Notes: a model not told the origin generated them from the sequence alone. Positions 7,047 through 23,090 are shown, counted from the stretch's first letter. The stretch is DNA of 37,994 nucleotides from an uncultured Spirochaetaceae bacterium (GCA_964437265.1 CAYTGY010000002.1:344-38337); one strand, 5' to 3'. Made by a program: numbers and translations.

Positions 7047-7478
7047 ATGCGATTACTAGGGAGACGGCGTCGGTCTGCGCGGCTGGTCTCCGGGTCTCTG
7101 CTGATGGGCATCGCGCTGGTGCTCTCCGGTTGTTTTACCACTGGGCCGTCAGAGGAGCACAAGGACCCGGCAACGGTGCTCAGGGTTTCGCGTGTTGAGT
7201 GGGAGACCGGCGTCATTGTCACTGAAGTCGTTGCGACGGTACGCGGTCTGACGCCCCAGACCGGAGAGCGGTTTGAGCTCTCCAAGGTTGGTGCACCGCT
7301 TGGCGTCGGGACGGTCCTGTCGGTCAGCGACGATCTCACGATTGCACGAATTCGGCTGGAGGAGGAGAGCACCGTCGCCAACCTTGGGTCGCTCATCGCC
7401 GTATCAGATCTACTGGAGGCGACTCGCTACGATGGAGAGGTGTTGCAGACGGGAGCATCAGGGAACATCGACGGATAG
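7047..7478 (+). CDS. Small lipoprotein with FlgT C-terminal-like beta domain
   Basis: GGAGG RBS and lipobox VLSG-C. 'GERFELSKVGAPLGVGTVLSVSDDLTIARI...LGSLI' resembles the FlgT_C pattern (judged by eye). Confidence 0.55.
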   Translation: MRLLGRRRRSARLVSGSLLMGIALVLSGCFTTGPSEEHKDPATVLRVSRVEWETGVIVTEVVATVRGLTPQTGERFELSKVGAPLGVGTVLSVSDDLTIARIRLEEESTVANLGSLIAVSDLLEATRYDGEVLQTGASGNIDG

Positions 7479-7488
7479 TTGGAGCGCA

Positions 7489-8547
7489 ATGGCTCGCAAT
7501 CGTGCTGGATTCTACTGTGTGATACTACCTCTGCTGATGCTCGCTCCGTTGAGTGACCCACAGGCGCAGTGCGATCTCTCCGTCACGCAATTGACCTCAG
7601 ACGGGGCCCGCGACTGGAAAGCGTTTGGACATCCGCGTCAGGACTACCTGGTCTATGAATCGCTCAGCCCCTATCAGACACGACTGTGGTTGCGGTCGCT
7701 CGAACGGCCTGATCAGATCGTCAACCTGGAGCTTTCCACGGATCGCGCGGAGGGGAATAATCCCTACGGTCTACGCGGCGAATGGAGCACAGGATCCCGA
7801 ACATTTCTGGTGCCTCTCTCTACCCGCGGCAATTACGACATTCAGTCGGTGTCGCTGACAAACCTGCTCGAAAGCACCGTTCTGACCAACCCGCGAACAC
7901 GCGTATCAGCAGTCTCCTCAGGTGAAGGATGGGAGGGAGATCTATCCATATCTCCGGATGACGCCTGGGTGGCCTATGTCGCAGGCTCCCCGCAAGGCGG
8001 CGCGCTGCTTGTCTCCCGAACCAATGGCCGCCGGCCACGGGTGCTGTACCAGGGCGACGGGATTGCCTTTGCGCCTGACTGGAGCTCCTCCACGCGGCGG
8101 TTGGTCTACAGCGTCAAGGAGCTTGACCGCGAGTACGTCACCGTGGTTCGGGATCCTGCCGGCGAAGCTCCGCGTGAGTTCTTCTCATCCGGTCTCTCAT
8201 ATGCGGTCTTCCGCACTGAAGACGAGCTTGTTGCCTACCGGGACAGCGATTTGGTGCTGGTCTCCGTTCCCGACGGCAGAGTGAGTGTCATCGCAGAAGA
8301 TGTGTACCTGGAGGAACGGCCCGCGGTCTCGTCCGATGGTCGGTTCCTGGCCTATACCACCAGCAGTCATGCCGGCCGCACCGTACACCTGTGGGACTTT
8401 CACGCACGCCGGTTGTGTACGGTGCCCCTCGGGGTTCCCCTGGCGGAGCGCCCCACCTGGATACCGGGCCGGTGGATCCTTATAGTTGAGGGATACAGCG
8501 GGATACAGTGGGATCTCTATGAGGTACGGATCGATGCGGGCAGGTAG
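7489..8547 (+). CDS. TolB-like beta-propeller (PD40 repeats), secreted
   Basis: Start reassigned to ATG 7489 (GGAG RBS, signal peptide). Repeats 'ISPDDAWVAY', 'PDWSSSTRRLVY', 'PAVSSDGRFLAY' and 'PTWIPG'. Confidence 0.8.
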   Translation: MARNRAGFYCVILPLLMLAPLSDPQAQCDLSVTQLTSDGARDWKAFGHPRQDYLVYESLSPYQTRLWLRSLERPDQIVNLELSTDRAEGNNPYGLRGEWSTGSRTFLVPLSTRGNYDIQSVSLTNLLESTVLTNPRTRVSAVSSGEGWEGDLSISPDDAWVAYVAGSPQGGALLVSRTNGRRPRVLYQGDGIAFAPDWSSSTRRLVYSVKELDREYVTVVRDPAGEAPREFFSSGLSYAVFRTEDELVAYRDSDLVLVSVPDGRVSVIAEDVYLEERPAVSSDGRFLAYTTSSHAGRTVHLWDFHARRLCTVPLGVPLAERPTWIPGRWILIVEGYSGIQWDLYEVRIDAGR

Positions 8548-9112
8548 GGCATCGCTTCGCGCCGTTGTTACCGTGCTCCCCCTCCTCTGCGTTGTCGCCT
8601 GTGGCTCGTCAGACGGGGAGCCGGTTCGCGGCACGGGGACGTATCAGGATGCGCTACGCGCGTACCAGATGGGAAGCTTTGCTGAGGCGCACGCGATCGC
8701 CTCCTCGCTGGACGCTCCGCCTGACGGTCGGCTGCTCGAGACGCTCTCCGCAATGGCTGCCGGCTCAGGCGGTTCCGTCGGCGCGCTGGTGGCATCGATG
8801 GAAGGGCCCGTTGAGGTGGGGGAGCTGGATCTGGCCGTGCCCGTTCGTGGCTACGACGAGGCGTTTTGGCAGGACCAGACCATGGGTGCATACCTTACCG
8901 TTCTAGAACGGTGCCTTTCCGGAGACCCCGCCGCGGTGCCAACGCGTACTGCCATGGAAGTGCGCGACTCTCTGGCCACGGTGCTCACCCATCCGTTCGT
9001 GGAGCGTCTCTCCGCCGCGACGGTGGACCGTGCACGCACGCTGTCTGATAGAGCGACCACGGTGCTGATGGAACGTACGCCGCTTGGCAACTACTCGAGT
9101 GAGGTGGAGTAA
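8534..9112 (+). CDS. Hypothetical helical lipoprotein (TPR-like start)
   Basis: ATG 8534 with GAGGT RBS, lipobox VVA-C and 'YQDALRAYQMGSFAEA'. The stop overlaps the next start (TAATG). Confidence 0.6.
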   Translation: MRAGRASLRAVVTVLPLLCVVACGSSDGEPVRGTGTYQDALRAYQMGSFAEAHAIASSLDAPPDGRLLETLSAMAAGSGGSVGALVASMEGPVEVGELDLAVPVRGYDEAFWQDQTMGAYLTVLERCLSGDPAAVPTRTAMEVRDSLATVLTHPFVERLSAATVDRARTLSDRATTVLMERTPLGNYSSEVE

Positions 9113-20866: not shown

Positions 20867-20880
20867 CCGGCGGACGGCGG

Positions 20881-21483
20881 GTGAAGGCGGTGTGCCGGGT
20901 CCGAGTGCCAAAGAGCGCATATATTGTGCGTGACCTTGCGTTGGAGCTTGTCCCCGGCACGTTGGTCTTCCTCTCCGGCCCAAACGGCTCGGGCAAGTCC
21001 ACCGCGCTCAACCGGATCAGCGCGTCGTGCAGAGGCCGGGACCAGCTGGAGTGGGTGCCCGGCCCACCGGTATCCGTCCTGCACATCCCTCAAAACGCGG
21101 CGGAGATGCTCCATCCGCTCTTTCCGGTGCGGAGGTTCGTTCGTGATTTCTTTGGCGCCAACGGTCTGGACGGCGCATCCTCCATGGCCGCGCTTGGGGA
21201 TGTCTTGCGTCAGCTGGGGATTCCCCACGCCGCGACGCTTCTTGACAAATACCCGTCACAGCTCAGCGGCGGACAACGTCAGCGCCTGTTATTCGGGATG
21301 ACGCTCCTGTGGACGGGAGAGCTTGTCGTGCTTGATGAAGCGCTGAGCAATTTGCCGCCTGGGCTCCGGATTGCCGGGTATGATCTGCTGCGTTCGCGTC
21401 TCGACGGCCGCTGCGCCGTCATCGTCTCGCATGATCGCTCCGTGGTCAGGCGGGAAGAGGGGGACCGAATCGTTGAGCTCTGA
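20881..21483 (+). CDS. ABC transporter ATP-binding protein (short, DppD-like)
   Basis: Walker A GPNGSGKST, 'YPSQLSGGQRQR', Walker B LVVLDE and H-loop VSHD. Start uncertain (GTG 20881 or ATG 20839). Confidence 0.85.
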   Translation: MKAVCRVRVPKSAYIVRDLALELVPGTLVFLSGPNGSGKSTALNRISASCRGRDQLEWVPGPPVSVLHIPQNAAEMLHPLFPVRRFVRDFFGANGLDGASSMAALGDVLRQLGIPHAATLLDKYPSQLSGGQRQRLLFGMTLLWTGELVVLDEALSNLPPGLRIAGYDLLRSRLDGRCAVIVSHDRSVVRREEGDRIVEL

Positions 21484-22183
21484 GACCGCCCTGTTGAGCA
21501 TCACCAATGCCACGTTATGTGAGCCGGCGTTTGAGGATCGGCCGGGCGGCGTCTTGTTCACCATTCGCAGTCTTGTCATCGCCAAGGGGTCCGTAGTGAG
21601 CGTGGTGGGTGAGAGCGGTTGTGGCAAGACTACTTTTCTCAGGTCGCTGCTCGATTCCCGGTATGCGATTATTGGTGGTGAGGTGGTGGCGACCCCGACC
21701 GCGCGGTTGATGCTCCTCTCGCAGGACTACCGCGCCACATTCACTCCGGCACTCTCCGTGCTTCGGCAACTCAGGGATGTCCGTCGCGAGCAGGGACGTG
21801 GCGCTGCACACACCGCCGCGCTGATGGCGTTTTCACTGGGGCTCTCCGCCCGGCATCTGCGCGCCACCCCCCCCAGCTTGAGCGGGGGAGAGCTCCAGAG
21901 GGCAGGCCTGGCTCGCGTGATGTTGACGCCGGCAACGGTGCTCCTGCTGGATGAGCCCACGGCGTCGCAAGACAACGACAGCCGGCGCCTGGTTGGTTCT
22001 GTGATTCGCCGGCATGCCCAGCGGCACAACGGCGCAGTAGTAATCGCCACGCACGACCGTGCGTTCGCGAATGAGGTTAGCGACGTGGTCTTGCGCATAG
22101 GAGACGGGCTGCTCGAGCCGGAGCAAGGGGCCGGCCAAGTGTCCGGAGAAGATCTACCCAATGCTGGAGGAACGTATGACTAG
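21473..22183 (+). CDS. ABC transporter ATP-binding protein (short, DppF-like)
   Basis: Walker [25 protein letters not shown] and IATHD. TTG start at 21473 overlaps the upstream gene. Confidence 0.85.
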
Positions 22184-23090
22184 ACAGAACCCATCGTCGC
22201 GGCCCCGCGTGTCCGTTGCCGGATGGATCAGCGCCTCGCTGGTACCGCCGCTTGTGGCGTTGTCGCTTTTCTCGGGATGTGCGAGCCAGGAGGAGGTGAT
22301 CGTCTCCGTTCGCGGCGAAGTGCCCAGCTTTGCCTTTGGCAATGACTTGTACAGTCTGGATACCATCCTCGTAGAAGGCGGCACCTTCCGAATGGGCAAC
22401 CCGAGCGGCGTTGACAGCGACGAGCGGCCGGTGCACACGGTGCGGTTGGACAGTTTCCGGATGAGCGCCACGGAGGTGACGTTTGCGCAGTACGATGCGT
22501 TTGCGCGCGCCACCGGACGCGATCTGCCGGATGACGAGGCCTGGGGCCGGGGAGATCGACCGGTGATCAATGTCAGCTGGTATGATGCGGTGGCCTACGC
22601 GAACTGGCTGAGCGAGCAGGACGGGTTGGAACCGGCGTACCGGATCAGCGGGACGAACGTGATCTGGGATCAAGACGCGAATGGGTGGCGGTTGCCCACG
22701 GAGGCAGAATGGGAGTACGCGGCGCGTGGGGGGCAGGACGCACGGGATACGACGTATGCTGGGAGCAACAGTGCGGCGGATGTTGCGTGGTACAGAGACA
22801 CTAGCGGCAGTCAAACACATCCGGTGGGGGAGAAACAGGCGAACGAGCTTGGGCTGTACGACATGAGCGGGAACGTGTGGGAGTGGTGCTGGGACTGGTA
22901 TGATGGCGACTACTACGAGGATTCGGTGGGAAGCAACCCGACCGGCCCCGCGTCCGGATCGCGCCGGGTGGAGCGCGGCGGTAGCTGGAACGGCAACGCG
23001 TCCATCGCCCGGGTAGCGAATCGCAACAACTTCAACCCGCGCATCAGGAACAACTACGTTGGCTTCCGCCTGGTGGTTGCGGCTGAGTAA
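22176..23090 (+). CDS. FGE-sulfatase/SUMF1 (CLec-fold) domain lipoprotein
   Basis: GGAGG RBS and lipobox FSG-C. 'GGTFRMG', 'TEVTFAQY', '[18 protein letters not shown]', '[15 protein letters not shown]', '[18 protein letters not shown]' and 'RGGSW...GFRL'. It lacks the catalytic Cys pair of true FGE. Confidence 0.93.
22962..23075 (+). other. Candidate DGR variable region (VR) at the 3' end of the FGE-domain gene
   Basis: Between RGGSW and GFR, 8 of 24 codons are AAC/AAT, and the other typically variable sites are NNC codons (GGC, TCC, ATC, TTC, CGC, ATC, TAC). Confidence 0.55.

Follow-up and report, generated by a model that had tools for sequence, protein, structure and literature searches.

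A spirochaete operon in which the genes of a diverged Opp/Nik-type ABC importer are interleaved with genes for putative envelope scaffold proteins

Binding-protein-dependent ATP-binding cassette (ABC) importers are textbook stand-alone inner-membrane systems. Those of the Opp/Dpp/Nik group (Bacillus subtilis AppA, Escherichia coli NikABCDE, GsiABCD) are built from a family-5 solute-binding protein (SBP), a pair of permeases (one B-type, one C-type) and a pair of ATPases in which every nucleotide-binding motif is present, and we found the same parts, with a C-type permease recognized by weak matches, in a block of 12 genes (g1 to g12) within a 37,994-nucleotide (nt) stretch of DNA from an uncultured Spirochaetaceae bacterium (GCA_964437265.1, CAYTGY010000002.1:344-38337; the whole stretch is hereafter called the window). 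The differences from these importers lie in the arrangement and in the missing domains: the importer genes are not contiguous but follow the order A ... C ... B-D-F, A being separated from C by genes for proteins of 455 and 1440 amino acids (aa), and C from B by a gene for a protein of 900 aa; the B-type permease g9 has no PF19300 domain, and the ATPases g10 and g11 have no oligo_HPY domain. The ABC components and the envelope proteins encoded among them probably act jointly, by a mechanism that has yet to be described. We infer, with somewhat less than even confidence, that the exported proteins build a periplasmic scaffold coupled to a diverged Opp/Nik-type importer, so that a conserved small ligand can be captured and taken up.

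The window forms contig C2 in an assembly of 659 contigs (G000) that is 72% complete and has a GC content of 0.63 (0.631 for the window). In the ORF (open reading frame) listing of the window, positions 7047-23090 hold 12 ORFs, all on the plus strand, flanked by opposite-strand genes at 5298-6968 (-) and 23145-24380 (-). At the most plausible start codons the junctions range from overlaps of 1-53 nt to gaps of at most 29 nt. Successive junctions are a gap of 10 (g1/g2), overlaps of 14-29 (g2/g3) and 1 (g3/g4), a start-dependent overlap of 53 or 8 or gap of 16 (g4/g5), gaps of 29 (g5/g6), 5 (g6/g7) and 18 (g7/g8), overlaps of 4-31 (g8/g9) and 28 (g9/g10), an overlap of 11 or gap of 10 (g10/g11), and an overlap of 8-23 (g11/g12). 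An earlier note, made by a model from the same DNA, had described 12 co-oriented genes with overlapping or short (30 bp or less) junctions, which these values confirm; its gene order, SBP, then C-type permease, then B-type permease with the D and F ATPases, and large genes interposed between these three parts, is likewise as we find it. A consensus scan found 10 terminator-like sites inside the block vs 11.3 expected and 2 promoter-like sites vs 3.3 expected from shuffled sequence, and there were no Rfam matches and no tRNAs (ARAGORN) in the window. Read from the sequence, the block is laid out as one operon. All seven non-ABC products (g1, g2, g3, g5, g6, g8 and g12) carry a signal peptide or lipobox; by sequence reading, g1, g3, g5 and g12 have a lipobox, and g2, g4, g6 and g8 have a signal peptide. 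Direct family searches bore out eight of the labels given to these genes in the earlier note, namely PD40 for g2, SBP for g4, C-type for g7, PEGA for g8, B-type for g9, ATPase for g10 and g11, and the FGE fold for g12.

The importer gene set appears complete but strongly diverged, comprising the SBP g4, the C-type permease g7, the B-type permease g9 and the ATPases g10 and g11. For g4, family assignment is firm (SBP_bac_5, 259.3 bits vs a cut-off of 32.4; Opp4A, 225.9 bits; Pfam and NCBIfam), the top solved relative being AppA (1xoc, 201 bits), with YliB/GsiB and NikA also matched. The permeases are more distant. Recognition of g7 as C-type comes from NCBIfam only, with Opp2C (29.9 bits, E 3.8e-7), Opp4C and NikC all at or below 29.9 bits vs cut-offs of at least 300, and it has no Pfam match. 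The g9 protein matches BPD_transp_1 at 30.6 bits (cut-off 26.4), with Opp4B (E 2.7e-16) among its B-type NCBIfam matches. Its closest relative, P0009, is 62% identical and its remaining matches at most 37%; in both g9 and P0009 a short Gly/Ala/Ser-rich loop replaces the PF19300 periplasmic N-domain, while columns invariant across 16 B-type permeases are preserved in g9 and the coupling-loop region is intact. Both ATPases are short, and an oligo_HPY tail was not found by Pfam in either of them. By comparison, paralogues in the same assembly score 95-115 bits for BPD_transp_1 and carry PF19300, OppC_N and oligo_HPY. Searches of 10 of the operon proteins against PADLOC defence models (g4 and g9 left out) gave no families for eight, and the two ATPases matched the generic ABC-like mad3 and mad8.

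Conservation of the arrangement was found in a metagenome contig (L012; GC 0.571 vs 0.631 for the window) that carries a distant relative of the giant g6 (P0003), and in which six ORFs (l1 to l6) are collinear with g1 to g6. The two giants are 24% identical over 1409 aa (E 2e-62). Among the other pairs, g2 and l2 are 27% identical over 356 aa (E 2.8e-34; l2 also matches PD40), the C-terminal 100 aa of g3 and l3 are 29% identical (E 2.6e-4), and g5 and l5 are 30% identical over 142 aa (E 5e-9). The SBP occupies the same slot in both loci and is 54% identical over 525 aa. Directly downstream, a C-type permease ORF starts 1 nt inside the stop codon of the L012 giant and carries LFGTDGFGND (LFGTDxxGxD) before the contig ends 62 codons on; its top match among the 12 window proteins is g7. 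Since the order of g1 to g6, the slot of the SBP and the C-type permease are all kept in a locus with no more than 24% identity between the giants, the scaffold genes of the first half travel together with those for the SBP and the C-type permease. The earlier note's pairing of ABC and scaffold genes thus withstood a neighborhood search: they recur in the same order, with an SBP that is 54% identical vs 33% for the nearest SBP in 98 other genomes of the same taxonomic order, and the neighborhood is not a chance one. Judged by these comparisons, the scaffold genes among g1 to g6 make up a deeply conserved unit with the genes of the SBP and the C-type permease, and the conservation of g8 to g12 appears shallow, extending to close relatives only. 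The contrast between the SBP (54%) and the scaffold proteins (24-30%) is in keeping with a ligand that stays fixed and a structural shell that evolves faster.

These comparisons also bear on a simpler explanation, that an ordinary peptide- or nickel-type importer operon has picked up unrelated envelope genes, which share its promoter but form no complex with it and have no common function. The source assembly offers some grounds for it, as at least 13 family-5 SBP loci lie over the Pfam cut-off and their order is variable, PEGA and FGE domains are abundant (12 FGE-sulfatase matches, and three PEGA matches on contigs other than the window's), g8 has no detectable orthologue, and the accessory proteins have no sequence similarity to one another. 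On contig C32 (L039/L040 set) an SBP gene is followed by a B-type permease with PF19300, and on C140 (same set) the order is ATPase (oligo_HPY), SBP and C-type permease. Gene order therefore varies even among ordinary loci, though without inserted large genes. The order of g1 to g7 with the SBP amid accessory genes is nevertheless kept when the accessory proteins are 24-30% identical, stop/start codon overlaps occur in each of the two loci, this type of operon has an SBP of its own (54% vs 33%), and the giant stands in this context in the one foreign locus read. We consider accidental acquisition unlikely on this balance.

The g6 family is very small. A phmmer search with g6 residues 1-1200 against 1.84 billion representative sequences returned three proteins, all full length, one 52% identical (P0002) and two 25-27% identical (P0003 and P0004), and the family comprises P0002-P0006. 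A full-length relative was found in none of 400 other genomes sampled from the phylum, 98 others of the order and 400 others sampled from the class (overlapping samples, about 890 genomes). Two scans of genome contigs yielded no relative, and of two scans of metagenome contigs, one gave nothing and the second L012 only. Contigs from three further runs also carry the operon, two of them from the same study and sequence-identical, and the third (X4) from another study. The X4 contigs hold pieces of g1/g2, g4, g8 (90-93%) and g10-g12, with overall identities of 90-97%; operon parts that the contigs of runs X2-X4 leave uncovered are not evidence of absence. All operon-bearing runs are, by record, microbial-mat metagenomes. 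The known lineages of the system number four, all uncultured.

The largest product is g6, a 1440-aa protein that has a signal peptide and is not a lipoprotein. Its models lay out about eight alpha/beta domains, a TPR-like helical region (1067-1190), a beta-sandwich (approximately 1189-1297) and two long C-terminal helices. An AlphaFold model of residues 1-1200, built from a 6-row alignment, was poor (predicted local distance difference test, pLDDT, 46) and shows a helix-strand-helix-(helix)-three-strand unit repeated about eight times. The top Foldseek matches of this model were the LpoB C-domain (E 1.2e-4, target template modeling (TM) score 0.62) and GNA1162, with CsgG only at rank 22. Superposed with VIA-align, residues 27-166 of this pLDDT 46 model fit the LpoB C-domain 4q6l with Z 10.9 (root-mean-square deviation 3.9 A, 127 of 135 residues) and GNA1162 with Z 7.8. 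The approximately seven domains beyond the first have a common helix/strand pattern only, and the 1067-1190 region looks TPR-like at a Z score that, for helical repeats, is not decisive. The repeated pattern suggests, at the level of the models, some eight LpoB/CsgG-type domains.

Sequence families gave no further help with this region. Neither the whole of g6 nor eight pieces of it matched CsgG, LpoB or TolB_N in Pfam at E values up to 10, with chance-level matches only. PDB sequence searches with the g6 profile and with g8 gave nothing meaningful, and the top Protein Atlas score for g6 was 0.86 (TPR and PEGA clusters), below lead level. The "poly-CsgG-like" label that g6 had been given is therefore a reasonable reading at fold level, supported for one domain (LpoB, Z 10.9), and finds no counterpart in sequence families or in the other domains. 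At the other end of the protein, a model of residues 1061-1440 (pLDDT 73.6) consists of the helical region, the beta-sandwich and a two-helix hairpin, and Foldseek with it found no convincing match (top TM at most 0.25; Wzc rows of low probability). Hydrophobic segments lie at approximately 1340-1362 and 1405-1426, inside the two C-terminal helices, and by this hairpin g6 is apparently anchored in the inner membrane. The two-helix module recurs in an ORF of 527 aa in genome G664 (profile match 30.5 bits, E 1e-7) and in one of 667 aa in genome G438 (25.1 bits, E 5.6e-6). A complex prediction for g7, g9 and g6 1300-1440 returned a score of 0.00 and a mark of 0.32, which is no evidence either way.

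The second large envelope protein, g8, matches PEGA in three stretches (98.6 bits) and CarboxypepD_reg (24.8 bits), and two N-terminal pieces searched against Pfam at E values up to 10 matched none of CsgG, LpoB and TolB_N. Among the smaller products, g2 combines a PD40 match of 27.7 bits, its only one over the cut-off, with one of 29.3 bits to TIGR02800, the TolB equivalog; the latter is so far below its cut-off of 343.15 that g2 has a TolB-like fold and is not a TolB orthologue. Neither g5 nor its L012 counterpart l5 matches LPP20 (PF02169) directly in Pfam. The N-domain of g5, however, aligns with part of a 534-aa ORF from genome G455 (38% identity over 80 aa, E 1.5e-4), and the stretch of that ORF aligned by g5 matches LPP20 at 27.5 bits (cut-off 25.9; the same ORF also has DUF4384), so that the "LPP20-like" label stands by transitivity and not by direct match. 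For g1, no Pfam match was found. Its nearest family-bearing Atlas cluster is FlgT_C (on 30% of members), with a score of 0.78 that is below the lead threshold, which leaves its reported likeness to FlgT-C as a weak lead. Its nearest Atlas clusters overall are unannotated 136-152-aa proteins (scores 0.89-0.91), and the few of their members for which a record exists include Verrucomicrobiota and Spirochaetota. Small lipoproteins resembling g1 may thus have a wider distribution than the operon itself. We also considered and rejected the flagellar collar/disk system (FlgT, FlgP, LPP20), as no flagellar Pfam family occurred in the scanned ORFs and FlgT_C is a weak lead only.

The operon ends with g12, which has a clear FGE-sulfatase match (210.1 bits, Pfam). 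In alignment with the FGEs 6muj and 2q17, it has Asn-Gly at the position of the first cysteine and a gap at the second, so the catalytic cysteine pair is absent and g12 is expected to be a binding or structural module, not an enzyme. Its top solved match is Treponema denticola TvpA (2y3c, E 1.2e-43), in an alignment that spans the C-terminal motif of variable-region (VR) type, and PorK/GldK also match (8.6e-17). TvpA is a CLec/FGE-fold lipoprotein diversified by a diversity-generating retroelement (DGR), and the earlier note had suggested that the operon ends in a hypervariable CLec receptor. Several points are in keeping with this: the relationship to TvpA itself, the Asn codons that the g12 C-terminus retains in the VR-type motif, and a complete-looking DGR on contig C574 of the same assembly (L019: 496-624, 586-1629 and 1626-1952, minus strand), with an HRDC-like ORF, a reverse transcriptase and a template repeat rich in Asn codons that is 76% identical to window 22946-23074. 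The template repeat has a different target, the C-terminus of an 826-aa PEGA and FGE-sulfatase ORF (C417:2517-2662, L023), where 21 of 21 substitutions are at adenines of the template and there is also one 1-nt indel. From the same template, the only one found in an assembly that is 72% complete, g12 differs at 18 adenines and at 25 positions with other bases.

Neither a reverse transcriptase nor a template repeat accompanies g12: RVT_1 matches lie on C146, C574 and C158 and none on C2, and C2 has no second copy of the g12 C-terminus. In the source run a single contig spans 22871-23300 with no other letters, and the sequence differences of run X4 show no bias toward adenines (A>N, 28 of 178). 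Across the contigs of four runs there is no adenine-biased variation, contigs being blind to rare variants. A second template repeat may lie elsewhere, given the 72% completeness. Taken together, the predicted hypervariability of g12 is not borne out, and we regard its being a DGR target as very improbable; g12 appears to be a paralogue of a DGR target, itself without sign of diversification. In the middle of g12 (22616-22871), the Logan contigs of all four runs break, with summed depth rising 3- to 10-fold or more and many loose ends. Such a break is expected where conserved FGE-domain words are common to many paralogues or organisms, and the region is not the VR-type C-terminus.

How these products might operate together can be sketched as follows. 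The seven exported envelope proteins, with folds typical of periplasmic or outer-membrane-associated assemblies, would form a scaffold that sits next to the transporter or above it, with g6 as its anchor in the inner membrane and the four lipoproteins as further attachments to membranes. The LpoB-like first domain of g6, its further alpha/beta domains, the TPR-like region and the beta-sandwich would lie in the periplasm. Such a scaffold could keep the SBP near the permeases, together with a module that binds the ligand (g12, possibly g2), so that a peptide-like or metal-chelate ligand caught in the envelope would pass to the SBP and be imported at the expense of ATP. A more specific version, a new kind of envelope machine in which the importer is built into a dedicated periplasm-spanning scaffold (inner-membrane-anchored LpoB-like string, PEGA array, LPP20-like lipoprotein, propeller and CLec lipoprotein) that physically channels to the importer, or gates by it, a ligand captured at or under the outer membrane and so gives diderms an uptake route without a TonB-type receptor, seems to us rather improbable.

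The same parts can be read in the opposite direction, with the ABC transporter serving the scaffold (assembly, stability or conformational work) instead of mainly importing a nutrient, by analogy with GldA/F/G. In its favor are the unusual divergence of the transporter (no Pfam match for g7, 30.6 bits and no PF19300 for g9, and ATPases lacking oligo_HPY, with canonical paralogues in the same genome), the interleaving of the permease genes with g6 and g8, and the presence of a non-catalytic FGE-fold lipoprotein with a PorK/GldK match (E 8.6e-17). The well-conserved family-5 SBP (54% across loci), however, argues for a small-molecule ligand and import, the ATPase motifs and the coupling-loop region are all intact, and GldAFG belongs to a different ABC class, without an SBP and with scattered genes. 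No importer of the BPD_transp_1 type is known to act as a mechanotransducer. We therefore rate an ABC transporter at the service of the scaffold as having a small chance of being correct, and leave the remaining weight to readings that we have not conceived.

Several observations weigh against a scaffold-coupled importer, which we still prefer. Outside close relatives, the collinearity spans g1 to the start of g7 only, and within it the g1-l1 pair (28% over 86 aa, E 0.064) is not significant, l1 being a positional counterpart. For the last three genes, g10-g12, the only occurrences are in the same population or in one that is 93-95% identical. No full-length homologue of g8 was found: 14 of 41 genomes gave matches, which beyond the gene of the source assembly itself were only PEGA-domain pieces of at most 33 bits, and among 8000 scored candidates g8 itself alone passed. 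Comparisons by hhalign among the putative domains of g6 and pieces of g1, g3, g5 and g8 reached a best probability of 15.9%, with no internal repeat or homology between the proteins detectable at sequence level, and the g6 1-1200 model is of low quality (pLDDT 46). The permeases and ATPases are far more diverged than their same-genome paralogues (30.6 bits or no Pfam match vs 95-115 bits), and with the loss of PF19300 from g9 ordinary import is not assured. One X4 contig, approximately 94% identical, lacks 186 nt of g10 in frame (window 21187-21372), which drops residues 117-178 including the ABC signature and Walker B; this may be a naturally occurring form whose ATPase is dead, or else an error of assembly. 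Finally, the rarity of the family leaves little comparative power.

The features of the block, its flanking genes and the two ORFs that share the C-terminal module of g6 are listed in Table 1.

Table 1. Genes of the operon, flanking genes and related ORFs (positions refer to the window, except for the last two rows, which refer to their own loci)
Feature	Position	Strand	Description
Left flank	5298-6968	-	556-aa, hydrophobic N-terminal segment, Ig_Rha78A_N repeats; divergent from operon start
g1	7047..7478	+	143-aa lipoprotein, lipobox LSGC, no family
g2	7489..8547	+	352-aa secreted PD40 beta-propeller protein
g3	8519..9112	+	~197-aa lipoprotein, lipobox VVAC, no family (no Pfam match)
g4	9112..10695	+	527-aa family-5 SBP; signal peptide, no lipobox
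g5	10643..12010	+	Lipoprotein (LPGC), ~414-455 aa, LPP20-like N-domain
g6	12040..16362	+	1440-aa, signal peptide, not a lipoprotein
g7	16368..17204	+	278-aa C-type (DppC/NikC-like) ABC permease, strongly diverged; LGTDRLGRD motif
g8	17223..19925	+	900-aa secreted; N-terminal alpha/beta region, PEGA array, helical C-terminal region
g9	19895..20866	+	323-aa B-type (DppB/NikB-like) ABC permease
g10	20839..21483	+	214-aa ABC ATPase; ABC_tran 57.5 bits; Walker A, signature, Walker B, H-loop
g11	21473..22183	+	~236-aa ABC ATPase (ORF open from 21371); ABC_tran 67.9 bits; Walker A, signature, Walker B, H-loop
g12	22161..23090	+	309-aa lipoprotein (FSGC), non-catalytic FGE/CLec fold
Right flank	23145-24380	-	BrkB-family protein
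G438 ORF	L014:94-2097		667-aa; weak TolB_N 14.9 bits
G664 ORF	L035:1456-3039	-	527-aa; CsgG 26.4 bits, PEGA 36.1 bits

At the left boundary, L012 has an RRM-type ORF at the position of the window 5298-6968 gene and no Ig_Rha78A_N counterpart there. At the right boundary, BrkB orthologues in three other genomes (G010, G004 and G005; 61-66% identical) adjoin no window gene except for a 47-bit ABC-ATPase match to g10, which is uninformative on insertion. Elsewhere in the window, positions 1-3926 (+) hold a second envelope gene set, made up of an FtsX-type permease truncated at the edge of the window, a LolA_like protein and then 451-aa and 203-aa ORFs without family. At 32682-37601 (-) a protein of 1639 aa carries Ig-like domains (Big_7, Big_13 and Big_3); beside it are a LuxR-type regulator (31694-32665, +) and, at 27789-31708, four ORFs on the minus strand that have no Pfam family.

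The earlier note had not recognized this architecture as a described system, and we too found no described system that matches it in the literature searched. The parts are all in, or resemble, known families or folds; it is the combination and the interleaved order that are absent from that literature. On sequence grounds, we would not assign membership in the curli (CsgG), TolB, FlgT, FGE or DGR-target families, for which the defining features were either lacking or gave no decision. If the products do assemble, the locus would represent a new coupling of envelope architecture to uptake, or an importer-type ABC transporter servicing an envelope structure, and it would provide a first functional context for PEGA, LPP20 and LpoB/CsgG-like domains and for non-catalytic FGE lipoproteins, which are common and poorly understood. 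The significance is limited by extreme rarity (four uncultured lineages) and by conservation seen for the first half of the operon only.

Among described systems, gliding and type IX secretion (T9SS) in Flavobacterium offer an analogy for the link between transporter and envelope lipoproteins. The Flavobacterium GldA/F/G ABC transporter is reported to be required for stability of the FGE-fold lipoproteins GldJ and GldK, and an ABC transporter is thus tied, as it may be here, to non-catalytic FGE-fold and other lipoproteins of an envelope machine (PMC9127263). The likeness is an analogy only; that apparatus has no PEGA or LpoB-like giants. Pfam scans of most of the larger window ORFs, with no dedicated Gld search, turned up no GldL/M/N-like genes, and membership of the operon in the T9SS/gliding apparatus was rejected, as the FGE fold of g12 is the sole link. 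With TvpA, g12 shares its lipoprotein nature, the C-terminal GGSW...GFRL motif region and a DGR in the same genome; it differs in lacking an adenine-only relation to the template and an adjacent reverse transcriptase or template repeat, and in standing at the end of an ABC operon. The modeled first domain of g6 resembles in fold the domains of LpoB/GNA1162/CsgG type (4q6l, 4q6z, 2mii, 4hrv and 4uv2), from which g6 differs in having neither a lipobox nor an evident CsgG-type barrel, with one domain supported, in a low-confidence model. The last comparison is with the uncharacterized proteins of genomes G664 and G438 from the same class, which combine CsgG or TolB_N with PEGA and two-helix modules, fold types that in the operon are split between g6 and g8. 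Those are single proteins of approximately 500-700 aa, in loci of about 3.3 kb in which no ABC gene was seen. Next to them, g6 and g8 have the look of a greatly enlarged relative, divided over two genes, of this smaller CsgG/PEGA type of membrane protein.

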